The notes: generated by a model not told the origin, from the sequence alone. Counted from the first letter of the stretch, positions 47,554 to 61,640 are shown. The stretch is DNA of 64,000 nucleotides from Alphaproteobacteria bacterium (GCA_965225945.1 CBDDBZ010000037.1:320001-384000), one strand, 5' to 3'. Program-made: numbers and translations.

Positions 47554-47834
47554 CTAGGGTCTGTACTCAATTAGGGATTCCCAAAATGGGTTTGATGTGA
47601 TTCAAGGTCTCTCACAGCAAGGAGGCCTTTCACAGGGCCTAGGGTCACAAGCAGGGGTCCACAGGCCTGGGGTCACCCATTAGGCCTCTGTTAGCAAGAG
47701 CGCGCATCTTCCCTTTCCTCCGGCGATGTGCCGGCAGGTTGTTTCGCTCTCCTCGCTCCCTCCGAGAAAAAGGGGTCAGAAAAAGGGGTCATTGTACTTT
47801 ATTCGGCGGAACGGCCGAAAAAGCAGAATGACCC
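47554..47834 (+). other. Probable IS-end remnants and short direct repeats preceding intron A
   Basis: CTAGGGTCTGTACTCAATTAGGGATTCCC resembles IS5-family ends. Contains CACAG(G)GCCTRGGGTCAC x2 and GAAAAAGGGGTCA x2. Confidence 0.4.
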
Positions 47835-49993
47835 GTGCGCCGGGAGGCCGGCGAGGAGTAGCGGATGAGAGAGCCGTACGGTGAAGGATTAGCCATCCAC
47901 ACCGGCCCCGAGTCATGCGCCTGCGGTCCGCGAGGGCGAGGCGAAGCGTTGACAGGGGTACATGTGGGCTGGGTATTGAGCCGCGAAAAATGCGCATTCG
48001 AGGCGCCGACCCTGTGGGTCTATGGGGAAGGCCACACCGACGAGCGCGCATTGGCGAGCGCTCGGAGGGCCTTGCGCGGTCGTAGACCCCACGCACGCAT
48101 GGAAATCGCCTGAGCGGAAACCGGGAGATCTCTCGAGTGGCCGTCCTTGCGTTTGCGCGGTCCGCATCGGGAAGGCCCGAAGGGCCGTAGCCGATGACGC
48201 ACGCTCGAGAGAAGTCAGATTTGCCCATAGTACCTGGGAAGCCGACGAACAAAGCCTTGTGCGAGGCGGCGGAGCCGGTGGAGGGAAGGGGCGGAGCCAA
48301 GGGGAACGTGGGTCAGCAACGCAGGCGCCGGACGCGGAGTCGGGAAAGCCTGTCACAGGGGCTGGAGCGCGTACGAGAAGCGGCGAGACGAGATGGGAAA
48401 CTAAAGTTCACCGCGCTGCTGCACCATGTCGATGTCGAACTCCTTCGGGCCTCCTACCTGGCGCTGAAGCGCGACGCGGCGCCCGGAGTGGACGGCATGA
48501 CGTGGCAAGAGTACGGCCAGGATCTGGAGCAGCGTCTCCCGAACCTGCATGGGCGGCTCCATCGGGGCGGCTACCGGGCTCTGCCGAGCCGGCGACAATT
48601 CATCGCGAAGTCGGACGGCTCGGCGCGGGCATTGGGGATCGCGGCCCTGGAGGACAAGATCGCCCATATGGCCGTGAGCACGGTGCTGAACCAGATTTAC
48701 GAGGAAGATTTCCTCGGGTTCAGCTACGGCTTCCGTCCGGGGCGCAACCAGCACGACGCGCTGGACGCGCTCGCGGTGGCGATCACCGAGCGCGAGGTGA
48801 ACTGGATCCTGGACGCCGATATATCCGGCTTCTTCGACTCATCCGACCAAAACTGGCTGAGAGGGTTCCTAGAGCACCGGATCGGAGATCGGCGTCTCCT
48901 CCGCCTTACGGCCAAGTGGCTGAAAGATGGTATATCGCGGCGGCTGTGGCTGATGATATCAGGATGATGGCAGCCCCTTCACGCATGATCGATAAATCGG
49001 GGTCGCCCTGACCTCGAACATCGAGGAAGGAGCGATGACGATGGCACATTTCGTAGGTCTGGATGTTTCGGTGAAGGAGACGGCGGTATGCGTCGTCGAC
49101 GAGGTTGGCGAGGTGGTGTTGGAGCGGAAAGTGCCGACCGAGCCGGACGACATCGTCACGCTGCTGACCTCGATCGGCGTGGCCTATGGCCGGATCGGGA
49201 TCGAAGCCGGTCCGCTCTCGCAATGGCTGGTCAACGGTCTTGCCGCCGCCGGGCTGCCGGTTGTCTGCGTCGAGACTCGGCACATGAAAGCACTGCTCAA
49301 GGGGCAGCAGATCAACAAGAGCGACCGCAACGATGCGCGCGGCATCGCCCAGATGATGCGGGTCGGGCTGTTCAAGCCGGTGCATGTGAAGACCCTGGTT
49401 GCCCAGGAGCAGCGGATGCTGCTGACCAGCCGCAAGCTGCTCCAGAGAAAACTGCTCGACGTCGAGAACGATCTACGCGGGACGCTGCGCAACTTCGGTC
49501 TCAAGGTGGGCATGGTCAGCACCCGCGGGTACGAGGCGCGGATCCGCGAGCTGGTCGAAGACTTTCCGAAGCTGGCCGCTATCGTGGAACCGCTGCTCAC
49601 CGTCCGGCGAGTGATGCGCCAGCAATTCGCGGTCCTCCACAAAATGGTGCTCGACACGGTCCGCCATGACCCGGTCTGCCGACGGCTCATGACGGCACCC
49701 GGCGTCGGCGTGGTCGTCGCGCTGACCTACCGGGCTACCATTGATCAGCCGCAGCGCTTCGTTCACTCCAGGGCGGTCGGCGCGCATGTCGGCCTGACGC
49801 CGAAGCGCTTCCAGTCCGGCGAGATCGACTATGATGGTCGCGTGTCCAAGTGCGGCGACAGCATGCTCCGCACGATGCTGTACGAGGCCGCGCAGTCCCT
49901 CCTCACCCACGGCCGGAAATGGTCCTGGCTGAAGGCGTGGGGCATGCGAGTGGCCCAGCGACGTGGCATGCGCCGTGCCATCGTCGCCGTCGC

Positions 49994-52538
49994 TGTGGAA
50001 CGGCGTGCAAAGTTGACCCCTGTTGAGGGGTGATCGGCGTCCAAATTTGACCCCCTGAGCCTGGCTAGTCCAAGTCACCTCGTTTTTGGGCGGACGAGGT
50101 GGTGGGGGATGTTGGTCGTGGAGACGATAGCGCGGATCCGGCGGGAGTATTTCGTCAAGGGGAAGCCGATCAAGGAGATCGTGCGGGACGTGAAGGTCTC
50201 GGGCAACACGGTGCGCAAGGTGATCCGTTCGCAGGCGACGGCGTTCACCTACGACCGGCGGGTCCAGCCGATGCCGAAGCTGGGGCCGTGGATGGCCGAG
50301 CTGGAGCGGATGCTGGAGGCCAACGAGACCAAGTCGAAGCGGGAGCGGCTGACGCTGCTACGGATCTCCGAAGCCCTCGAGGGTCTGGGCTATGGCGGCG
50401 GCTACGACGCGGTGCGGCGCTACGCCAAGGCGTGGCGGTGGCGCCGTTCGGCATCGACGGCGCAGACCTATGTGCCGTTGGTGTTCTCGCCGGGCGAGGC
50501 CTATCAGTTCGACTGGAGCCACGAGTACGTGGTGCTGGCGGGGGTGACGACCAAGGTCAAGGTCGCGCACGTCCGGCTGTGCCACAGCCGAATGTTCTTC
50601 GTCCGCGCTTATCCGCGCGAGAGCCAGGAGATGGTGTTCGACGCCCACGACCGGGCATTCCGGCTGTTCCAGGGTGCCTGCCGGCGAGGCATCTACGACA
50701 ACATGAAGACGGCGGTGCAGACCGTCCTCATCGGCAAGGAGCGCGCGTTCAACCGGCGCTTCGTGCAGATGTGTGGCCACTACCTGGTCGAACCGACAGC
50801 ATGCACGCCGGGAGCGGGATGGGAGAAGGGGCAGGTCGAGAACCAGGTCGGGATCATCCGCGGTCGGTTCTTCACCCCGCGGCTGCGCTTCAAGACCTAC
50901 GACGAGCTCAACGCCTGGCTCTTGGACCAGTGCGTCGCCTACGCCCGGCGTCATCCCCACCCGGTGTTCAAGGACAGGACTGTCTGGCAGGTGTTCGAGG
51001 ACGAGCGTCCGTCCCTGGTCGGCTATCGCGGGCCGTTCGACGGCTTCCACGCGGTCCCGGCGTCGGTGTCGAAGACCTGCCTGGTGCGCTTCGACAGCAA
51101 CAAGTACAGCGTGGCGGCGCGCGCCGTCGGCCGTCCGGTCGAGGTCCATGCCTACGCCGATCGCATCGTCATCCGCCAGGACGGCGAGATCGTCGCCGAG
51201 CATGCCCGGCGCTTCGGCCGCGACCAGACCGTCTATGACCCGTGGCACTACGTGCCCGTGCTGGCGAGGAAGCCCGGTGCGCTTCGTAACGGCGCGCCGT
51301 TCAAGGACTGGGCGCTGCCCGGCGCCCTGGGTCGCGTGCGCGTCCGGCTCGCCGGCCACGACGACGGCGACAGGCAGATGGTCGAGATCCTCACCGCCGT
51401 GCTGGCGGATGGGCTGGCGGCGGTGGAGGCCGCCTGTGCCGAGGCGCTCGCTGGCGGCGTGTGCAGCGCCGACGTCGTGCTCAACATCCTCAATCGTCGG
51501 CGCCAGCCGTCCGAGACGGCGCCGATCCCGACGCCCGCGAACCTGCGTCTTCGCTTTGAGCCGGTGGCCGATTGCACCCGCTACGACCGCTTGAGGGGGG
51601 TCGGCCATGGAGCGCCATGAGGTCCTGGAGATGATGGCCGCACTCAAGCTCGCCGGCATGCGCGACGCGTTCGACGAGGTGCTCGCCGACGGCCTCAAGC
51701 GCCAGCATCCGATGCAGCGAATCATCGGCGAGCTGTTGAAGGCCGAGATCGCCGACAAGCAGGCGCGATCCATCAAGTACCAGATGAGTGGCGCCAAGCT
51801 GCCGCTGGCCAAGGAGCTGGCCGACTTCGACTTCACCGACACCCCGGTCAACGAGCCGCTGGTCCGCGAGTTGGCGGTCGGCGGCTTCCTGGCCAACCAG
51901 CGCAACGCCGTGCTGATCGGCGGCACCGGCACCGGCAAGAGCCATCTCGCCGTCGCCATCGCGCGGGCCTGCATCCGCGATGGCGCCCGGGGCCGCTTCT
52001 TCAACGTCGTCGACCTGGTCAACCGGCTCGAGGCCGAAGCCCGCGCCGGCCGCCAGGGCCGGCTCGCCGATCAGCTGGCCCGGCGCGACCTCGTCATCCT
52101 CGACGAGCTCGGCTACCTGCCCTTCGCCCAAACCGGAGGCCAGCTGCTGTTCCACCTCGTCAGCCGGCTCTACGAGCGCACCTCGATCATCGTCACCACC
52201 AACCTGACCTTCGGCGAATGGCCGTCCGTCTTCGGCGACGCCAAGATGACCACCGCGCTCCTCGATCGTCTGACGCACCACTGCGAGATCATCGAGACCG
52301 GAAACGACTCCTGGCGCTTCAAGAATCGGTCCTAAAGGCAACCGATCCACCTGCCGCCCGGTCGCCCAGGTGGGCCCACAGGAACCTCCCACGCGCGGTC
52401 CGCCGCCAGCCGCGTGGTGGGCGCGTCGGCCCGCGCGCGGGCCCCTCCTATGGACTACCTGTACGACCTCCGCCGTGCATCCCCAAAGGGGTCAACATTG
52501 CACGCCGATAGGGGGTCAATGTTCAACGCCGATTGACA
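49994..52538 (+). mobile_element. IS21-family element, copy 2 (istA 50109-51620, istB 51607-52335)
   Basis: Same 2545-bp element as 17638-20182, with one T/M change in IstA. 7-bp TSD CCGTCGC. Confidence 0.95.
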
Positions 52539-52857
52539 CCGTCGCGAGGCGCCTGGCCGTAGTTCTGCACCGCATGTGGGTCGACGGCACCGAGTTCCGC
52601 TGGAGCAACGGCCCTGCTGACGCCGTCAAGGCGGCTTGAACCTTCGACTGTACTGACAAGGAGATCAACGAGTTCTGCTTAGGCAGAGAGATGTCCTCAC
52701 GGGGACGACGGGTGGGGTGAGTTCGTAATGTCGGTAGACCCTGCCGCTGACCGGCGGCAAGGACGCGCGAAAGATTGAACCGCCTCATCCTCTGATCCCA
52801 TCATGAGGTGGCCACGCGCCAACCTCGAAGAGAAGCAAGAGCCCCGTGCGGCAACAT

Positions 52858-54197
52858 GATTGAGCAACCTGATGTGTGGAAATTCGGAACGCCGTTGATC
52901 AGTCATCCTCTGCTTTCCAAGTGATGTAGGGTTTTTCGGTGGTTTCCCATTTCTCGTCGATTTCGACGAGGATGGCGGTGACCAGGCGTTCGAGCGAGGC
53001 CTCGTTGGGAAAGACCCTGACCTTTACGGTGCGGCGCTTGATCTCCTGCTGGATGGATCGCTCCATGGGGTTCGAGGTTCGCATGCGCTTTTGGTGGCGC
53101 TCGGGCAGGGCGAAGACGGCGAGGCCCTCGGGGATCGCCGCCTCCAGCCAATCGGCGAGCTTGGGGGCGCTATCGCGGTAGGCCGCCACCAGGTGGCCCA
53201 GCTCGGCCTCGGCGGCCTTGCCGTCGGCGGCATTCCAGACCCGGCGCAGCTCCTTGCCGATGGCCTTTCGGATGGCGAGGTTGGGGGCGTGATGGATGGC
53301 GTTTTGAGCCAGATGGTACTGACAGCGCTGCCAGACGGCGCCGCCGAGGACGGCCTTGCGCGCGGCGCCGAGGCCTGGATGATCATCGGAAACGATATAG
53401 GCGACACCGCGCATGCCACGGGCAACCAGGGTCTCCAGGAAGGCGCGCCAGTGCACTTCGGCCTCGGAGAGCGCACAGGAAACACCGAGCACCCGGCGGC
53501 GCTGGTCGGGGCCGATGCCGATCACCGAGAGCACGGCGGCGTCGCGCACCACGCCACCCTCTCGGACTTTCTCATAGCGCGCGTCGAGGAGCAGGTAGCG
53601 GATCTCGCCCAGCGGCCGGTTGCGCCAGGCATCCAGCTCCCCATCCAAGAGCTTGGCGGCGCGGCTGACCTGGCTCGACGACAGGCTCTCCAGGCCGAAC
53701 TCGCGCATCACCGCCTCGGCGTCACGGGTGGAGACGCCTTTGATATACATCTCCGCCACGGCCAGCATGACAGCGCGGCAGGAGCGCCGTCCGCGCTCCA
53801 GGGCTTGGGGGTAAAAAGGCGCCTCATGACCGGCGGTCTTGGGAACCTCGAGCCTCACCGTACCGGCCGGGGTGTCGATCTTCTTGGGTCTGGTGCCGTT
53901 GGCGTATCCCCGCCGCTCGGGCGTGCGCTCATAGTGGCCGGCGCCCAAGAACCTCTCCCGCTCGATCCGCATGGCGAGATTGAAAAGGCCGGCGAAGACC
54001 GTCGCCATGTTCTCGCTACCGCCTTCGATCAATTGTTCCACCAAAGCCTCGACAGCGCTATCCTGGTCTTTCCGCATACTGGTTCTCCATGTTTGTTTGG
54101 ACGCTTTCATGGATAACCAAAATGACGGATCGCCCCGCGCCGGGGTATACCCCGGCGCGGGGCGAAGCCAAATTTCCAGACCTCACGCTACACAAGC
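52858..54197 (-). mobile_element. IS256-family element
   Basis: Imperfect 27-bp IR GATTGAGCAACCTGATGTGTGGAAATT vs GCTTGTGTAGCGTGAGGTCTGGAAATT. 8-bp TSD GGCAACAT (52850-52857, 54198-54205). Confidence 0.9.
52899..54077 (-). CDS. IS256-family transposase
   Basis: EMYIKGVSTR, LLLDARYEKVR, SDDHPGL, QRCQYH, RTSNPMER, VFPNEAS. Confidence 0.93.
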   Translation of the reverse strand: MRKDQDSAVEALVEQLIEGGSENMATVFAGLFNLAMRIERERFLGAGHYERTPERRGYANGTRPKKIDTPAGTVRLEVPKTAGHEAPFYPQALERGRRSCRAVMLAVAEMYIKGVSTRDAEAVMREFGLESLSSSQVSRAAKLLDGELDAWRNRPLGEIRYLLLDARYEKVREGGVVRDAAVLSVIGIGPDQRRRVLGVSCALSEAEVHWRAFLETLVARGMRGVAYIVSDDHPGLGAARKAVLGGAVWQRCQYHLAQNAIHHAPNLAIRKAIGKELRRVWNAADGKAAEAELGHLVAAYRDSAPKLADWLEAAIPEGLAVFALPERHQKRMRTSNPMERSIQQEIKRRTVKVRVFPNEASLERLVTAILVEIDEKWETTEKPYITWKAEDD

Positions 54198-55066
54198 GGC
54201 AACATCCGCCAGTGCGGAACGACGTGAAGAAGGAATATGGCATGACGTAACCAGAAAGGGCTTGACCGAGGACGCGATAGAGAAGCCGGCATTATGCAAG
54301 ATGGCAAACTCACGGTCCCGGAGCAGGGGACGCCACAGGGCGCGGTGCTCTCACCGCTGCTCTCCAACGTCTACCTGCACTATGTCCTGGACTTGTGGGC
54401 GCACCAATGGCGTCGGCGCCATACCCACTGCGACATGGTCATCGTCCGCTACGCGGACGACTTCGTCGTGGGCTTCGAGTACCGGGAAGACGCGCTTGCC
54501 TTCCGGGCGGCATTGGAGGAACGCTTGCGGGCTTTCGGCCTCGCGCTGTTCGCGGAGAAAACCCGGCTCATCGAGTTTGGGCGGCACGCCGCGAAAAGTC
54601 GGAAGGGCCGAGGCGACGGCAAGCCGGAGACGTTCGACTTCCTGGGCTTCACGCACATCTGCGCGAAGGACCGGAAGGGACGGTTCCAACTGCGACGCAA
54701 GACGCGGCGTAAGCGCATGGGGGCGAAGCTCGGGGAGATCAAGCGCGAACTCCTCCGGCGACGGCATCAGCCAATCGCCGAGCAGGGCCGCTGGCTGGCA
54801 TCGGTGGTGCGAGGCTACTTCGCGTACTTCGCCGTGCCGACCAACGCTCCGGCCCTGAATGCCTTCCGCTATCAGGTCGCCCGGTTCTGGCTGAAAGCGC
54901 TCCGGCGCCGCAGCCAGAACGACCGCACGACCTGGAAGGTCTTTGCCAAGCTGGTCGAGCGCTGGCTTCCGCCAGTGACGATCCTCCATCCCTGGCCGTC
55001 GAAACGCTTCTACGTCAAATACCCGAGGCAGGAGCCCGGTGCATTAGCAGTGCACGCCGGGATCTG

Positions 55067-56947
55067 GTGCGCCAGGCGAACTGGCAGAAGGTAGGGGGTG
55101 CAAGTCCCCCGGAACGAAGGAGTAACCGAACCACGTTTCTCCGCGAGCCGTGCGTTGGCTCCCGTGAGGGGGCAGGCGAAGCGTCGGTAGCGGCATGGAT
55201 GGGCAGGGCTATTGAGCACCGTAAAAGCGATGGTCCGGGGTGCCGAGGCTTTCAGATCGGTCGAAGGCAATATCGCAGGCGTCGTTTTGGTGAGATGTCG
55301 GCGAGCCCCGCGGTGTCAGAGAACCCATGCACGTTCGCACGCCTTCTGTTGGGACCCTGGGAGGTCTTCAAACTGCCCCGGTTGTCGTAAAGGGGCCGCG
55401 TAGGGAATGGAGAAAACCGAAGCCTATGATGAACGGTTTGAAGAAGTCGGATGAGGCCATACGACCTGTGAGGGCGGCGAACAAGGGAGCGCGAGCTTCT
55501 GCGGAGTCGCCGGAGGAAAGGGCCTCAACCAAGGGGAATCCGGATTGCCAAAGCACGCGCCGAACCCAGTGTCGGGTAAGCGTGCCACAGGCGGCGGCCC
55601 GGATACGGAAAGCTGCAGAGAGAAACCCGAAGGAACGTCTCACTGCGCTCTTCCACCACATTACGCCGGACGCGCTCGGTGCGGCCTACTTCGCATTGAA
55701 GAAGGACGCAGCAGCCGGTGTCGACGGCGTTACGTGGGACATGTACGGCGAGGGTCTGGATGAGCGCCTGCTCGACCTGCACCGGCGCCTGCACAGAGGG
55801 GGAGCGTACCGGGCGCCGCCGGTTCGGCGGGTAGAGATACCCAAGCCGGACGGGGGGACACGACCGCTCGGGATCGCGGCGCTGGAGGACAAGGTCGTCC
55901 AGAAGGCGGTTGTGGATGTGATCCTGACACCGATCTACGAGGTGGTGTTTCTTGGCTTCAGCTACGGGTTCCGACCGGGGCGGGGGGCGCACGATGCGCT
56001 CGATGCCCTGGCCTTCGGGATAAAACGGCGCAAGGTCAGCTGGATAGTCGATGCAGACCTCCGGGCGTACTTCGACACGATCCCGCGGGATTGGTTGATC
56101 AGGTTCCTAGAGCACCGCATCGGAGACAGGCGGGTCATCCGTCTGATCTGGAAATGGCTGAACGCCGGCGTCATAGAGAGTGGGTCATGGGCAGATACGG
56201 GTATGGGCACGCCGCAGGGGGCAATAGTCTCCCCCGTCTTGGCGAACGTGTTCCTGCATTACGTGCTCGACTTGTGGTTCCACAAGAAATGGCGCCCGAA
56301 CGTCCCGGATGGCGAAGCGATCATCGTCCGTTACGCTGACGATATCGTTGTCGGGTTCCAACACAAGCGGGATGCGGAGCGGTACCTCCGCGACGTTCGG
56401 GAGAGGCTGGCCCGGTTCGGTCTCAGCCTCCACCAGGACAAGACCCGCCTCGTGGAGTTTGGCCGGTTCGCGGATTTGAACCGGCGCCAGCGCGGGGTGG
56501 GCAAGCCGGAGACTTTCGACTTTCTGGGCCTCACGCACTATTGCACGACGACCCTGAGAGGACGCTTTCGGCTTGGTCGCAAACCGGTCGCCAAACGGGT
56601 CAACAGGACCCTGGCGCGCATCGACGAGGTGCTCCGCAAGCGCTGGCACCACGACATCTGGGAAGTTGGTAGGTGGCTGGGGCGAGTCTGCAATGGCTGG
56701 CTCAACTACTTTGCCGTCCCAGGGTCAGGCCGGTTCATCCGTGCGTTCCTCCGCAGGCTGCAACGCCGGTGGATGCGGGCGCTACGCCGCCGGTCCCAGC
56801 GAGCCCGATTTAGTTGGAAGCGACTGGAGCGCATGACCGAAATCCTGTGGCCACGCGCCTCCATCCGCCACCCATGGCCGGACCAGCGGTTTGCCGTCAA
56901 GCACCCGAGGTAGGAGCCGGATGGTTCAACGACCACGTCCGGATCTG
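55067..56947 (+). mobile_element. Group II intron B, copy 1 (ends just after domain V)
   Basis: GTGCG at 55067, EBS1 CAGATC at 55253-55258, domain V at ~56913-56946. Confidence 0.92.
55426..56913 (+). CDS. ltrA: Group II intron reverse transcriptase/maturase B1
   Basis: AAGVDG, IPKPDGGTRPLGI, GTPQG, YADD, FDFLG, HPWPDQRF. Confidence 0.95.
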   Translation: MMNGLKKSDEAIRPVRAANKGARASAESPEERASTKGNPDCQSTRRTQCRVSVPQAAARIRKAAERNPKERLTALFHHITPDALGAAYFALKKDAAAGVDGVTWDMYGEGLDERLLDLHRRLHRGGAYRAPPVRRVEIPKPDGGTRPLGIAALEDKVVQKAVVDVILTPIYEVVFLGFSYGFRPGRGAHDALDALAFGIKRRKVSWIVDADLRAYFDTIPRDWLIRFLEHRIGDRRVIRLIWKWLNAGVIESGSWADTGMGTPQGAIVSPVLANVFLHYVLDLWFHKKWRPNVPDGEAIIVRYADDIVVGFQHKRDAERYLRDVRERLARFGLSLHQDKTRLVEFGRFADLNRRQRGVGKPETFDFLGLTHYCTTTLRGRFRLGRKPVAKRVNRTLARIDEVLRKRWHHDIWEVGRWLGRVCNGWLNYFAVPGSGRFIRAFLRRLQRRWMRALRRRSQRARFSWKRLERMTEILWPRASIRHPWPDQRFAVKHPR

Positions 56948-58878
56948 GTGCGCCAGGCGAACTGGCAGAAGGTAGGGGGTGCAAGTCCCCCGGAACGAAG
57001 GAGTAACCGAACCACGTTTCTCCGCGAGCCGTGCGTTGGCTCCCGTGAGGGGGCAGGCGAAGCGTCGGTAGCGGCATGGATGGGCAGGGCTATTGAGCAC
57101 CGTAAAAGCGATGGTCCGGGGTGCCGAGGCTTTCAGATCGGTCGAAGGCAATATCGCAGGCGTCGTTTTGGTGAGATGTCGGCGAGCCCCGCGGTGTCAG
57201 AGAACCCATGCACGTTCGCACGCCTTCTGTTGGGACCCTGGGAGGTCTTCAAACTGCCCCGGTTGTCGTAAAGGGGCCGCGTAGGGAATGGAGAAAACCG
57301 AAGCCTATGATGAACGGTTTGAAGAAGTCGGATGAGGCCGTACGACCTGTGAGGGCGGCGAACAAGGGAGCGCGAGCTTCTGCGGAGTCGCCGGAGGAAA
57401 GGGCCTCAACCAAGGGGAATCCGGATTGCCAAAGCACGCGCCGAACACAGTGTCGGGTAAGCGTGCCACAGGCGGCGGCCCGGATACGGAAAGCTGCAGA
57501 GAGAAACCCGAAGGAACGTCTCACTGCGCTCTTCCACCACATTACGCCGGACGCGCTCGGTGCGGCCTACTTCGCATTGAAGAAGGACGCAGCAGCCGGT
57601 GTCGACGGCGTTACGTGGGACATGTACGGCGAGGGTCTGGATGAGCGCCTGCTCGACCTGCACCGGCGCCTGCACAGAGGGGGAGCGTACCGGGCGCCGC
57701 CGGTTCGGCGGGTAGAGATACCCAAGCCGGACGGGGGGACACGACCGCTCGGGATCGCGGCGCTGGAGGACAAGGTCGTCCAGAAGGCGGTTGTCGGGAT
57801 CGCGGCGTGGAGGATCCTGACACCGATCTACGAGGTGGTGTTTCTTGGCTTCAGCTACGGGTTCCGACCGGGGCGGGGGGCGCACGATGCGCTCGATGCC
57901 CTGGCCTTCGGGATAAAACGGCGCAAGGTCAGCTGGATAGTCGATGCAGACCTCCGGGCGTACTTCGACACGATCCCGCGGGATTGGTTGATCACGTTCC
58001 TAGAGCACCGCATCGGAGACAGGCGGGTCATCCGTCTGATCTGGAAATGGCTGAACGCCGGCGTCATAGAGAGTGGGTCATGGGCAGATACGGGTATGGG
58101 CACGCCGCAGGGGGCAATAGTCTCCCCCGTCTTGGCGAACGTGTTCCTGCATTACGTGCTCGACTTGTGGTTCCACAAGAAATGGCGCCCGAACGTCCCG
58201 GATGGCGAAGCGATCATCGTCCGTTACGCTGACGATATCGTTGTCGGGTTCCAACACAAGCGGGATGCGGAGCGGTACCTCCGCGACGTTCGGGAGAGGC
58301 TGGCCCGGTTCGGTCTCAGCCTCCACCAGGACAAGACCCGCCTCGTGGAGTTTGGCCGGTTCGCGGATTTGAACCGGCGCCAGCGCGGGGTGGGCAAGCC
58401 GGAGACTTTCGACTTTCTGGGCCTCACGCACTATTGCACGACGACCCTGAGAGGACGCTTTCGGCTTGGTCGCAAACCGGTCGCCAAACGGGTCAACAGG
58501 ACCCTGGCGCGCATCGACGAGGTGCTCCGCAAGCGCTGGCACCACGACATCTGGGAAGTTGGTAGGTGGCTGGGGCGAGTCTGCAATGGCTGGCTCAACT
58601 ACTTTGCCGTCCCAGGGTCAGGCCGGTTCATCCGTGCGTTCCTCCGCAGGCTGCAACGCCGGTGGATGCGGGCGCTACGCCGCCGGTCCCAGCGAGCCCG
58701 ATTTAGTTGGAAGCGACTGGAGCGCATGACCGAAATCCTGTGGCCACGCGCCTCCATCCGCCACCCATGGCCGGACCAGCGGTTTGCCGTCAAGCACCCG
58801 AGGTAGGAGCCGGATGGTTCAACGACCACGTCCGGATCTGCGCGGGGGGTGCGCAGCAATGCGCATTCCTACCGTAAC
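56948..58878 (+). mobile_element. Group II intron B, copy 2 (complete)
   Basis: GTGCG at 56948, domain V, then domain [40 protein letters not shown] ending in AC at 58878. Confidence 0.92.
57307..58806 (+). CDS. ltrA: Group II intron reverse transcriptase/maturase B2 (4 aa longer than B1)
   Basis: Near-identical to B1. VVDVIL is replaced by VVGIAAWRIL. Confidence 0.93.
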   Translation: MMNGLKKSDEAVRPVRAANKGARASAESPEERASTKGNPDCQSTRRTQCRVSVPQAAARIRKAAERNPKERLTALFHHITPDALGAAYFALKKDAAAGVDGVTWDMYGEGLDERLLDLHRRLHRGGAYRAPPVRRVEIPKPDGGTRPLGIAALEDKVVQKAVVGIAAWRILTPIYEVVFLGFSYGFRPGRGAHDALDALAFGIKRRKVSWIVDADLRAYFDTIPRDWLITFLEHRIGDRRVIRLIWKWLNAGVIESGSWADTGMGTPQGAIVSPVLANVFLHYVLDLWFHKKWRPNVPDGEAIIVRYADDIVVGFQHKRDAERYLRDVRERLARFGLSLHQDKTRLVEFGRFADLNRRQRGVGKPETFDFLGLTHYCTTTLRGRFRLGRKPVAKRVNRTLARIDEVLRKRWHHDIWEVGRWLGRVCNGWLNYFAVPGSGRFIRAFLRRLQRRWMRALRRRSQRARFSWKRLERMTEILWPRASIRHPWPDQRFAVKHPR

Positions 58879-59206
58879 TGTCCGCCTCCAGGATCGCGTC
58901 GACGATGCCGGTGAACCCGTCCAGCTTGGGCCGCCGGACCGGCTTCGTCCGCCGGTAGCCCGGCGGCGCCGAGTAGCTCAGCATCTTCTTCACCGTCCGG
59001 CGGTCGATGCCGAATCGTCGGCCCGCCTCGTGATGGCTCAACCCCTCATCGACAACCGCCAGACGAACCGCTGCATGGAGCTCCACGCCGTACATCTCCT
59101 GCCCCTCACCACAACCGACAAGGGGCTATAGGTGGCGCATTTTTGCGCCGCCGCGACCGGACCGCCCGGCCGCTCCGCGTGGTGCATTATTCCTCCGCCG
59201 TTAACA
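58879..59206 (-). mobile_element. Left end of a different IS21-family element with istA 5' fragment (59095-58879)
   Basis: TGTTAA end at 59206 with repeated boxes. MYGVELHAAVRLAV...SAPPGYRRTKPVRRPKLDGFTGIVDAILEAD is cut by intron B2. Confidence 0.85.
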
Positions 59207-59662
59207 CCCTGCGGACGAGCACCACGGACGAAACACGGAATCACATGACAGCGGAGGTCCAGGAGCTGCGCGCCCGCAAACTTCTCGCACAACACGAGAA
59301 GATTGTCTTGGATGGGATCGAGCGTAAAAGGAAGCATGCCGCCTACGGCCTTTGTATCGACGACACCAAGACGCGGGCGATCACACAGAAGAGCACCGCC
59401 ATCACGCGCATTGCGGTTACCCGGAAACTCAAACAGAGTTTTCAGGACGAGCTTTCAAAGCTCGCTTTCCGGCATGTCGAAGTCGAATTAAAGGAAGTCG
59501 GCGGCACAGAAGGTGTTCTCTATCACAAGCTTGTCCTCACACGCGCGCCGGGAGTTGAATCGCCGAAAGTCGTCAGCGAAGGGGAACAGCGCTGCCTCTC
59601 CATCGCAGAGTTCTTCGCCGAACTCAGCACAGCCGACGATCCTTCAAGCATTGTGTTTGATG
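59207..59662 (+). pseudogene. Fragment of an ABC/SMC-like ATPase
   Basis: Signature VVSEGEQRCLSIA and a truncated Walker B (SIVFD). No Walker A. Confidence 0.7.
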
Positions 59663-59674
59663 CCCGTCGCAGCC

Positions 59675-60151
59675 TCACGCGCCCCGTCGGCGCTGGACCC
59701 GCCGGGGCGCCTGGCGGAATAACCGCAGATAAACGAAGAGCAGCCACGCCGGCAAGCTGGCCGCCACCGCACAGGCCGCGACCGCCACCGGACCCAACAG
59801 GTCCACCGCGACCGAGCCTGCCGCGATCGCGGGCACCATGACCCCCAGCACCGCCCAGGCCGCGACGACGTGACCGCGCCGCCACAAGCCGCCGCAGGCC
59901 AGCGCCAGTGGCAGCCCCGCCGGTGCCAGCCCTGCAAGGACCACCCACGCATCGAGATTCGCCGGCCACTGCATCGCGCCCAATGCCGCGCCCGATGCCA
60001 CATGGTGCACAACCGGAAACCAGGCCAGGGCGAGCACGGCGGCCGCGCCGCGCGCCGCCGCAACGCGCATTCCATGCACGTTCGACGGCCCCGACAGGAT
60101 CCGCGGCGGGTAGCGCACGAGCGTGAGTGCTACGAACTCTTTCATCCCCAC
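59675..60151 (-). CDS. Hypothetical membrane protein
   Basis: About four hydrophobic helices. Start uncertain. Confidence 0.5.
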   Translation of the reverse strand: MGMKEFVALTLVRYPPRILSGPSNVHGMRVAAARGAAAVLALAWFPVVHHVASGAALGAMQWPANLDAWVVLAGLAPAGLPLALACGGLWRRGHVVAAWAVLGVMVPAIAAGSVAVDLLGPVAVAACAVAASLPAWLLFVYLRLFRQAPRRVQRRRGA

Positions 60152-60775
60152 AGCCTTGTGTTGGAAGCGGCGCGAATTAACGGCCGCGCCATCGTGGATA
60201 GCAACCCGCGCGGACTCTGTTCCGCAATGCCCGTTGCCCGTCTGCCACAGCCCCTACCGCCGCGGTCTTCCGCAATTCCCGATGCTGCGTGCTTGCCCCA
60301 CGCCCGCGACCCGCCCTGAAGAGGGTGCGTCCCTGCACGCATGCCGTGCCCACCCTGCGCGGCCCCTCCCCCTGCGCACCTTCAAGTGGAGAGTAGCCGG
60401 TACAGGGCGACGCGCCCGGGGGCCGGAGAGAGGGATTCCGGCCCGGGCGCCGTCCGAACCCGAGAACCGGAGGCAGCCCATGTTCTATCCCGCACCCGCG
60501 TCCAGCGACCCCCACACCCTCTCCGAGCCCGCCCCTGACGACCCCGACCGATCCCACCCGGGCTTCACACCCCTGCGTCCCGACCCGGGCGCGCTGCTCG
60601 CCGCCGCCGGGCTTTCCTCCCGCGCCATTCGCGAGATCGTCGGCAGTCCGCCCGGCGTCGGCGCGGACGGCTGAGCGCGGTGCGAGAGGAGGCGGTTCGC
60701 GCAGGACGCGTGACATCCGGCCCCTGTTCGACGGCCGGCGGCCCGAGCAGTGCATCGTCAACGAATACCGCCTCG

Positions 60776-61640
60776 GCCATGCGCCCGGCATGTAGCGCGC
60801 CATGATCGAGAGCGCATACAGCGTCACTGCGGCAATGGTCCTGTACTCGCGAAGGCCGCCCATCGTCGGGAAGAGGAGTGCAGGGTTGTTCCCGAACGGC
60901 GACGAATGGGTCGGGAGCACCGGCCACATAGTGTCATGGCCGGCGTGATCCACGCGGGCGCGAAACACGCTTCCCGTGCCCTCGCCGTCGGTTTCTTGCC
61001 GGATTTCCGCGATTGGCCACCCGGCACTGTGCAAACTATCGACGGAAACCTTCCCGGAGGAATCGAGTAACAACCCATAGGTGCTGGTCACCTTCCGCGC
61101 AGGCCTCCGCGCGTTGGCCACTTGGTCGTAAGCGACTGAGATCCATCTGGGTGGACCGCCGACTACCTCGGCGTAGAGGTCGTCGATCTCGGGCATGGAT
61201 GCGAACAAGTCCGGGAGCAAGCAGGCCATCCCGAAAGGTACCTTCTCGAGATCGGCCAGCGATCGAGGCCTCTTCTTCGGATAGCCGGAGGTGTCCTGCC
61301 GCAGGAACTTCATCCACTGTGGAAAAAAGCCGCTTGCGAGGACACCGACGTGAATATCCGCAAAGCCGCCGTGCGACGCCGCCAGCGTATATAGTCCGTG
61401 GCCGTCCCGGGTCATCGCTTCGACCTTGTCCAGATCGATCGGTCCGGACGGAGAGGCAAGCATCTCGGACTGAGCAAGAGCCATCGTGCCGTAGTAGAGA
61501 CCGAGAACCTTCCTGTTGAGTGGATCGCGCGGCGTCGAGACGATGTAGTCGAGAGCGCTCCGCATCGAATAGGCGACGCCGGTCGCCTTTGCGTCGGCCT
61601 CGGTAGGTGCCAGAGCAATGTTTTCCGCTTCGGCCCGCCG
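60776..61640 (-). pseudogene. YaaC-like protein fragment
   Basis: LYYGTMAL, HGL and LYALSIMARYMPGAW motifs as recalled for the family. Both ends fuse to unrelated DNA. Confidence 0.6.

Follow-up and report, generated by a model that had tools for sequence, protein, structure and literature searches.

A bacterial group II intron positioned between domains V and VI of other introns and of its own copies

Group II introns that lie within other group II introns have been described in several organisms. In Methanosarcina acetivorans, nests of up to five introns are attributed to repeated homing into related introns, balanced by recombinational deletion (PMC4424553, PMC2882425). The introns M.a.I5, UA.I3, P.l.I2 and B.th.I3 lack an endonuclease and target the reverse transcriptase (RT) active-site motif of other introns (PMC2504315). 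This article concerns intron B, a group II intron of 1,919 nt in the genome of an "Alphaproteobacteria bacterium" assembly (GCA_965225945.1). The DNA analyzed is a 64,000-nt stretch of that genome (CBDDBZ010000037.1:320001-384000), called the window below, in which one copy of B directly follows domain V (DV) of a different intron, A, and a second copy directly follows DV of the first. Compared by description, B resembles the Methanosarcina/M.a.I5 type in being endonuclease-less and in having as its homing site a conserved sequence of related introns. In Methanosarcina, a nest is a perpetual homing site at which insertions are balanced by deletions through homologous recombination (PMC4424553, PMC2882425, PMC2504315). 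However, the target of that type is the coding motif of the RT active site, in domain IV, whereas the target of B is the junction between J5/6, the linker that closes DV, and domain VI (DVI). Unlike the Methanosarcina type, B also enters itself, giving separate stacks of bodies and of 38-nt DVIs.

Other systems share single features with B. TeI3 within TeI4 of Thermosynechococcus elongatus is likewise an insertion at a conserved site of another mobile intron, which aids proliferation (PMC2882425). That site, however, is between the first two ATGs of the intron open reading frame (ORF), in domain IV, and the inner introns are described as ORF-less and not self-nesting (PMC2882425). In the Trichodesmium twintron the inner intron is in domain I (PMC4649490). 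The plant mitochondrial intron cox1i1149g2 is, like B, a group II intron inserted in a copy of itself. Unlike B, it represents a single organelle event, at intron position 652; the inner copy was not seen to splice, and repeated stacking is not reported (PMC7049729). RmInt2 and EcKTE56.groEL resemble B in that several copies of one bacterial intron come to occupy one locus through the intron's own targeting (PMC4615759, PMC12584367). There, a whole second copy lands before the first because the U of exon-binding site 3 (EBS3) pairs with the first intron base, G (PMC4615759, PMC12584367). The resulting junctions are exon/intron and 3' end/5' end, whereas those of B join DV plus J5/6 to a 5' end, and its copies are nested rather than side by side. 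C.te.I1 of Clostridium tetani, like B, has repeated 3'-terminal ribozyme modules after one intron body (PMC4424553). The repeat in C.te.I1 is DV plus DVI, each unit providing an alternative 3' splice site that serves another ORF farther downstream (PMC4424553); unlike C.te.I1, B repeats DVI alone, as identical leftovers of nesting. Finally, introns of the RmInt1 type (class D) encode, as B does, an intron-encoded protein (IEP) with RT and maturase only, and their retrohoming is guided by pairing between exon-binding sites (EBS) and intron-binding sites (IBS) and is biased to the lagging-strand template (PMC4615759). The class D motif LX3AX3PXLF[V/A]HW (PMC4615759) was not found in the C terminus of the B protein, which was read by eye and with no profile, and the open frame of B has 528 codons against 419 residues for class D IEPs (PMC4615759).

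A first-pass annotation of the window, made from its sequence alone, had proposed that B homes to the DV/DVI junction of other introns and of itself, and had presented this as a strategy not known to have been characterized. The second statement needs division: nested arrays formed by repeated homing into related introns are already described, while the DV/DVI junction and bacterial self-stacking appear to be new, no report of either having been found in a literature search that covered few subscription papers.

The window is part of contig C37 of this genome (G000, 39 contigs), with window position 55030 corresponding to C37:375030. Direct reading at 52,500-61,500 and 47,600-50,200 bore out the coordinates proposed for the nest, the GGATCTG ahead of both B starts, and the two CAGATC sites. 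The nest and its flanks contain the following features, with the basis of each assignment in parentheses.

47836-48925, plus strand: 5' part of intron A, domain I to N-terminal RT (RF02005, BLAST map)
48926-54293, no strand assigned: insertion-sequence (IS) nest splitting the RT gene of intron A (Pfam; gap of 5,368 bp between the two parts of A)
54294-55066, plus strand: 3' part of intron A, C-terminal RT and then DV (RVT_1 on 54294-55094; DV pattern match at C37:375030)
55067-56947, plus strand: B1, the outer B copy, body only, from GTGCG through DV plus J5/6 (sequence reading, BLAST, Rfam)
55253-55258, plus strand: EBS1 of B1, CAGATC, the complement of GATCTG (terminal loop in RF02005; covariation in relatives)
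55327-56913, plus strand: IEP of B1 (Pfam, translation)
56948-58840, plus strand: B2, the inner B copy, body, inserted exactly after J5/6 of B1 (sequence reading, BLAST, Pfam)
57134-57139, plus strand: EBS1 of B2, CAGATC (RF02005 alignment)
57208-58806, plus strand: ORF of B2 (Pfam)
58805-58840, plus strand: DV of B2 (RF00029 alignment)
58841-58878, plus strand: single DVI, a 38-nt hairpin with a putative bulged A near its 3' end (RF00029 alignment, fold)
58879-59095, minus strand: N-terminal fragment of an IstA-like (IS21-family) gene, cut at the 3' end of B (weak alignment)

The 5' exon of intron A ends with ..GACCC at 47835, and its 5' part is matched by RF02005 at 47868-48089 with 177.9 bits (cut-off 49). 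DV of A occupies 55030-55066 and closes with J5/6 as ..GGGATCTG. B1 starts with GTGCG at 55067, immediately 3' of ..CACGCCGGGATCTG, the end of that DV, and ends at 56947 in its own DV (56912-56947) plus linker, ..CCGGATCTG; this body of 1,881 nt has no DVI of its own behind it. B2 in turn starts with GTGCG at 56948, immediately 3' of ..CACGTCCGGATCTG, the DV of B1, so that both B starts in the window come right after GGATCTG. The 3' end of intron B is at 58878, a boundary that agrees with an uninterrupted ortholog described below.

The same arrangement recurs throughout the genome, too often to be due to chance. When B was compared by BLAST with the 39 contigs and the junctions were tabulated, 14 5' ends of B were found: eight after its own DV, two after DV of A (on C24 and in the window), one after DV of a third intron, D (on C34), and three in non-intron DNA. 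Thus, as anticipated, DV junctions are recurrent in the 5' exons of B here, its own DV accounting for 8/14 and those of other introns for 3/14. The eight junctions after its own DV belong to five loci on C31, C33, C37 and C38, and all of them join DV plus J5/6 directly to a 5' end, with no DVI between the bodies. The DVIs are found instead at the 3' ends of B, in head-to-tail stacks of up to six identical 38-nt units, as follows.

C38:142k: six DVIs, with two bodies, one of them split by an insertion sequence
C38:556k: four DVIs, after three full bodies and one body cut by the contig end
C33: five DVIs, one of them with a 2-nt deletion
C34:398k: three DVIs, followed by D's own DVI
C39: three DVIs, with one body
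C35: two DVIs, with a body cut by the contig end

Bodies and DVIs are stacked on the correct sides at eight loci on seven contigs, and at C38:556k four bodies are followed by four DVIs. A run of n bodies followed by n DVIs must be the product of repeated insertion between J5/6 and the innermost DVI. To our knowledge, no other process sets unit boundaries exactly at the first base of an intron and at the J5/6-DVI junction. Nested retrohoming is, with high probability, the origin of the B nests and stacks, and the proposed insertion of B at the J5/6-DVI boundary, in itself as in other introns, with stacking, is upheld. Two other routes to adjacent copies are ruled out by the junctions: read-through of a lariat or circle, because no DVI bases are present there, and head-to-tail tandem integration, because no DVI lies between bodies.

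At five places the remainder of the outer intron follows B: on C24 (DVI of A), on C34 (DVI of D), at C38:556k, in a second genome (G037) and at a locus of a metagenome-assembled genome (MAG; locus L055). On C24 the order is intron A to its DV, B with one DVI, six bases of the DVI of A, a mini-intron, C, and then the other 32 nt of the DVI of A; the DVI of A is absent from the window and was found in the genome only at C24 and C33. Mini-intron C is ORF-less, about 654 nt long, and lies 6 nt inside the DVI of A, both at C24:80986-80333 (minus strand; locus L023) and at C33:304.0-304.7k; GCGGG, with which that DVI begins, pairs with the EBS1 loop of C. Since C lies beside the B site in A, the DV/DVI boundary of A has been struck by two different introns.

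One array can be placed against an empty site. A single alpha-2-macroglobulin-like gene supplies, one half each, the 5' exon of the C31 array and the 3' exon of that at C38:142k; its same-genus ortholog is uninterrupted at this point (..GGGTCTG/CTCTCGG..), which fixes both intron boundaries. This suggests one deep array split over two contigs, with three of its bodies on C31, two more on C38, and six DVIs. The outermost copy of this array, at C31:260175, has T rather than G as its first intron base, a change that, judged from the sequence, would be expected to block its splicing.

Could such arrays stem chiefly from DNA-level events (tandem duplication, unequal crossing-over or slippage) that began with one intron and involved no retrohoming at the DV/DVI junction? 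In favor of this, C38:556k has three full bodies of identical sequence, tandem repeats of 38 nt slip readily, and the numbers of bodies and DVIs are unequal at most loci, a point that also weighs against nested retrohoming. In several arrays DVIs exceed bodies (6 versus 2, 3 versus 1, and 3 versus 1), an excess consistent with the removal of 1.9-kb bodies through homologous recombination. Array sizes may also have been altered by unequal crossing-over or slippage, so DVI counts are not counts of insertion events. However, duplication would have no reason to choose unit boundaries that fall exactly at the first intron base and at J5/6-DVI. The junction is, moreover, the complement of EBS1, and four different host introns carry B at this very point, each with its own DVI next. 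B1 and B2 differ at three sites plus a 12-nt in-frame patch, and the B1 variants (393A, 500C, 1036G) are common to copies on C33 and C38; the two copies thus belong to different sublineages, which argues against local duplication. DNA-level events may resize an array, but they cannot make the first unit of two bodies followed by two DVIs, and an origin mainly by such events is very improbable. The 12-nt net in-frame patch of B2, near 57795-57813, resembles sequence about 40 nt upstream.

Pairing between the intron and its target supports nested retrohoming. In the RF02005 alignment, CAGAUC lies in the terminal loop of a hairpin at model positions 146-154; its complement, GAUCUG, forms the final six bases of the DV-J5/6 segment, and CAGAUC pairs with the GAUCUG or GGUCUG of B 5' exons. 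The equivalent loop of intron A, GGGTC, matches the exon of A, GACCC, an agreement that the first-pass annotation had noted and that was confirmed. For a covariation test, the first 270 nt of 53 metagenomic relatives were aligned to B, A and C. In 48 of the 53 relatives, a 6-nt pairing joins the loop to the end of the intron's own 5' exon; with loops dealt to other introns, the pairing count has a mean of 15.8 and a maximum of 24 (of 53). The terminal loop in RF02005 and this exon pairing together bear out the assignment of EBS1.

Intron B is recognizable both as a ribozyme and by its protein. The RF02005 model (group II domains I-IV) matches at 55101-55325 and 56982-57206, with 163.7 bits each (cut-off 49). 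The RF00029 model (DV-DVI) matches 58805-58878 with 35.4 bits, below its cut-off of 40, and aligns this segment as DV, a 2-nt linker and DVI; the fold of the two hairpins has a z of -4.58, with a bulge ahead of the 3' end. A genome-wide search with RF00029 returned two unrelated introns only and missed the DVs of B; a pattern search and a DV-DVI profile search took its place. The profile picked out 85 similar segments, and 78 of the 80 metagenomic relatives have at least one. The IEP contains RVT_1 (residues 171-403, E 3e-37) and GIIM (426-498, 21.6 bits, just below the cut-off of 23), and Pfam places no domain C-terminal to GIIM, hence no endonuclease domain. The stop codon of the open frame is at the foot of DV, and the true start of the IEP is probably an internal methionine (MMNG..). 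The 539-codon open frame is intact in 11 of the 13 full B bodies, the two exceptions being the most diverged copies, in ordinary sites. Near-identical copies at many sites suggest recent mobility of B.

What B recognizes can be seen in its 5' exons. A target logo built from 21 distinct B-family 5' exons shows conservation only from -7 to -1: G at -1 and T at -2 (each 21/21), C at -3 (19/21), T at -4 (20/21), A (14/21) or G (7/21) at -5, G at -6 (20/21) and G at -7 (16/21). The first base after B (+1), tallied by eye, is T at 17/21 distinct non-self sites. Among the 85 DV-DVI segments of the relatives, GGATCTG stands ahead of DVI in 59, and the first base of DVI is T in 70 and C in 7. Thus, the target of B is the consensus DV/DVI junction of its clade (GGAUCUG/U), in keeping with the earlier idea of a conserved ribozyme segment as target. 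The junction of B itself departs from this consensus, with C as the first base of DVI. The insertion point, after J5/6, is about 35 nt downstream of the stop codon of the host ORF and is not the RT catalytic motif of the host intron.

The claim that B specializes in introns did not survive this survey: DVs (self, A, D, D-like and E) make up only five of the 21 distinct 5' exons, the other 16 are not introns, and in two other genomes 5/5 and 8/8 of the 5' ends are in ordinary sites. B might then be a low-specificity retrotransposon that needs about 7 nt and piles up in introns and insertion sequences since harmless hits persist there, without any preference for the junction. The predominance of non-intron exons, the restriction of conserved positions to -7 to +1, insertion hosts that include an IS3-like gene (by our own reading) and an IstA-like gene, and the lack of self-nesting in two genomes with near-identical B all favor this idea. 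The genome contains 2,259 7-mers GGATCTG or GGGTCTG. Despite this supply, DV ends account for most B junctions, and B is found at only about ten ordinary sites; by contrast, every suitable intron junction found in the genome is occupied (A with its DV at C37 and C24, a 3' remnant of A at C33, and D, 1/1). In addition, the motif together with the preferred T at +1 equals the clade consensus junction. The contrast in occupancy could reflect a real preference, proximity of the ribonucleoprotein (RNP) to its own gene, or survival of harmless insertions. A purely low-specificity element is a serious possibility, if an unlikely one; it overlaps with nested retrohoming and differs from it only on whether there is a preference beyond the survival of harmless hits. 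At the other extreme, B could be an adapted parasite of its own clade. In this case EBS1 and the partner of +1 would be tuned to the near-invariant GGAUCUG/U, which hosts could not change without loss of catalysis, and the C at the first DVI position of B itself would give partial self-immunity. A failure of that immunity here would lead to runaway self-nesting, with several RNPs per transcript by inside-out splicing. This is a speculative proposal that we consider more doubtful still.

B-family copies with 93-99% identity are present in four other assemblies. In a same-genus genome all five copies are in ordinary sites, with one DVI each; in an alphaproteobacterial MAG all eight 5' ends are in ordinary sites, and the four visible 3' ends have one DVI each. 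One of the two copies in G037 interrupts a D-like intron at its DV/DVI junction and is followed by the DVI of that intron, and the single copy at L055 is in the junction of a further intron, E, again followed by the DVI of its host. Insertion into the junction of related introns is therefore a recurrent event across genomes, and self-nesting is seen in this genome only, among the five with B-family copies. The more distant metagenome relatives comprise 80 loci with RTs 50-65% identical, 53 of which have the 5' end on the contig; no B-family copy is present among the 80, and none of the 53 5' ends follows a DV.

Besides the unequal numbers of bodies and DVIs, several observations weigh against nested retrohoming as the origin of the arrays. 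B copies that are 98-99% identical in two other genomes are never self-nested (0/5 and 0/8 5' ends); a search for a change that would account for self-nesting in this genome alone yielded one fixed difference only, at B position 1206 and synonymous by reading, between the B copies here and those of the two closest genomes. The proposed check of the domain I fold gave a divided answer: the Rfam alignment puts CAGAUC in a terminal loop, but the minimum-free-energy fold of the subdomain alone pairs CAGAUC and forms no loop, with a z of -0.37, no better than shuffles. Because the single-subdomain fold fails to reproduce the loop, thermodynamics gives EBS1 no support. Nor did a scan for EBS2, in which intron 6-mers were compared with the 21 target sites, find a consistent partner, the best reaching 10/21 and its sites adjoining IBS1. 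An EBS2 candidate read by eye, GCGAUG in an internal loop with CAUCGC, fits two or three sites only and was dropped. Finally, A-IS-B composites may have been copied as units, so that insertions into A may not be independent events.

The window itself is part of the difficulty. Its junctions are those of a self-stack in DV/DVI, as first described, and are exact, but its three DVs share a single DVI; the nest here is thus incomplete, and a clean one would end with three DVIs (those of B2, B1 and A). Where the DVIs of B1 and A should follow, the 3' flank is instead the IstA-like fragment. It aligns collinearly with the IstA of the window (28% identity, E 0.003 for that pair), gives only sub-threshold helix-turn-helix matches in Pfam, and has paralogs in C3 and C35. 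Contig ends from other sequencing runs carry a DV-like sequence just ahead of this flank, one base off the IBS1 of B. Probably B also inserted into an IS21-like element, and recombination of that copy with the nest swapped the 3' flank of the window; the missing DVIs of B1 and A would have been lost in this way. The evidence for such an exchange, the IstA-like fragment and the contig ends of other runs, is weak and is to be counted with the points above.

The assembly has limits that bear on the same question. Three arrays, on C31, C35 and C38, run into contig ends. Logan contigs of four runs reach 15-26 nt past the A/B junction, short of the 31 nt required by the bridging rule, so that no junction is formally bridged, and among these contigs no piece crosses B1/B2, which leaves the window nest neither confirmed nor refuted by them. 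In runs X1, X15, X17 and X20, which include a sponge metagenome, the summed contig depth over B (window 55002-58927) exceeds that of the flank within A by a factor of about 18 to 160 (e.g., 540 versus 8.3). This factor does not measure copy number; repeats of this kind are difficult to assemble. A search of public runs turned up none recorded as RNA. It might therefore be supposed that the tandem B copies and DVI stacks are assembler products of a high-copy repeat and that the real genome holds single introns. However, repeats are usually collapsed rather than expanded by assemblers, array units carry their own variants (B1 versus B2, and the units on C31), and bodies and DVIs stand on their correct sides at eight loci on seven contigs. 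Three other assemblies also place B between DV and DVI of a host intron, and the contig ends of other runs show more DV-like sequences before the 5' end of B and host-DVI-like sequences after its 3' end. An assembly artefact is thus an extremely improbable source of the arrays.

Nested retrohoming would proceed as follows. The excised intron, as an RNP, would reverse-splice into DNA wherever its short motif is exposed. Without an endonuclease, B probably takes the primers of replication forks for cDNA synthesis, as RmInt1-type introns do. With so short a motif, the junction of related introns would be a recurrent target alongside ordinary genomic sites, and the junction of B itself, with C as the next base, would be a less ideal recurring target. 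In the window (55067-58878), B1 would have entered A at this junction and B2 would have entered B1 exactly between its J5/6 and DVI. Repeated hits into the innermost copy would then build the stacks of n bodies and n DVIs. At the RNA level, the innermost copy would have to splice first, each splice restoring the next DV-DVI. Homologous recombination between the 1.9-kb bodies would delete bodies and leave stacks of orphan DVIs.

The IS nest that splits the RT gene of intron A contains the following genes, all identified with Pfam.

49035-50033, plus strand: IS110-family transposase
50109-51620 and 51607-52335, plus strand: IS21 IstA and IstB
52899-54110, minus strand: Mutator/IS256-family transposase

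The same Mutator/IS256-family element is present at the same point of intron A in three loci (window 48926-54293, C29:43158-44622 and C24:86296-87763), and the 5' flank of A in the window is unlike those at C24 and C29. This suggests that intron A and its insertion sequence were copied as a composite unit, or that the insertion sequence spread by gene conversion. B bodies at C38:144739-146520 and C33:307776-307850 border one and the same IS end, at B positions 821 and 845, and this insertion sequence splits one B body at 1101-1116, a position homologous to its position in intron A. It may favor intron RT genes.

Intron pile-ups of other kinds may be present elsewhere. In a Rhodothermales MAG record (L032, L035 and L057), full copies of a different group II intron are accompanied by tandem fragments of its 5' end, of about 597 nt, and these may represent another kind of intron pile-up, in a different phylum. 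On a metagenome contig (L077), two intron 5' ends come directly after the 3' end of another intron; the three DV-DVI matches there, the first two about 675 nt apart, look like head-to-tail mini-introns.

Loci of the B type matter for annotation, as they will be miscalled by pipelines that assume a single DV-DVI for each RT gene; two published pipelines state that nested introns are missed (PMC4028801, PMC8919778). Each orphan DVI that remains after the loss of a body adds 38 nt and cannot be spliced out, and the host gene is therefore permanently damaged. The stacks are natural substrates for the ordered splicing of up to six nested identical introns, for reverse splicing into strongly structured DNA, and for the recombinational pruning of retroelement arrays. 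B is a retroelement that lands in the most conserved part of a ribozyme, its own copy included, and can therefore multiply without striking new host genes.

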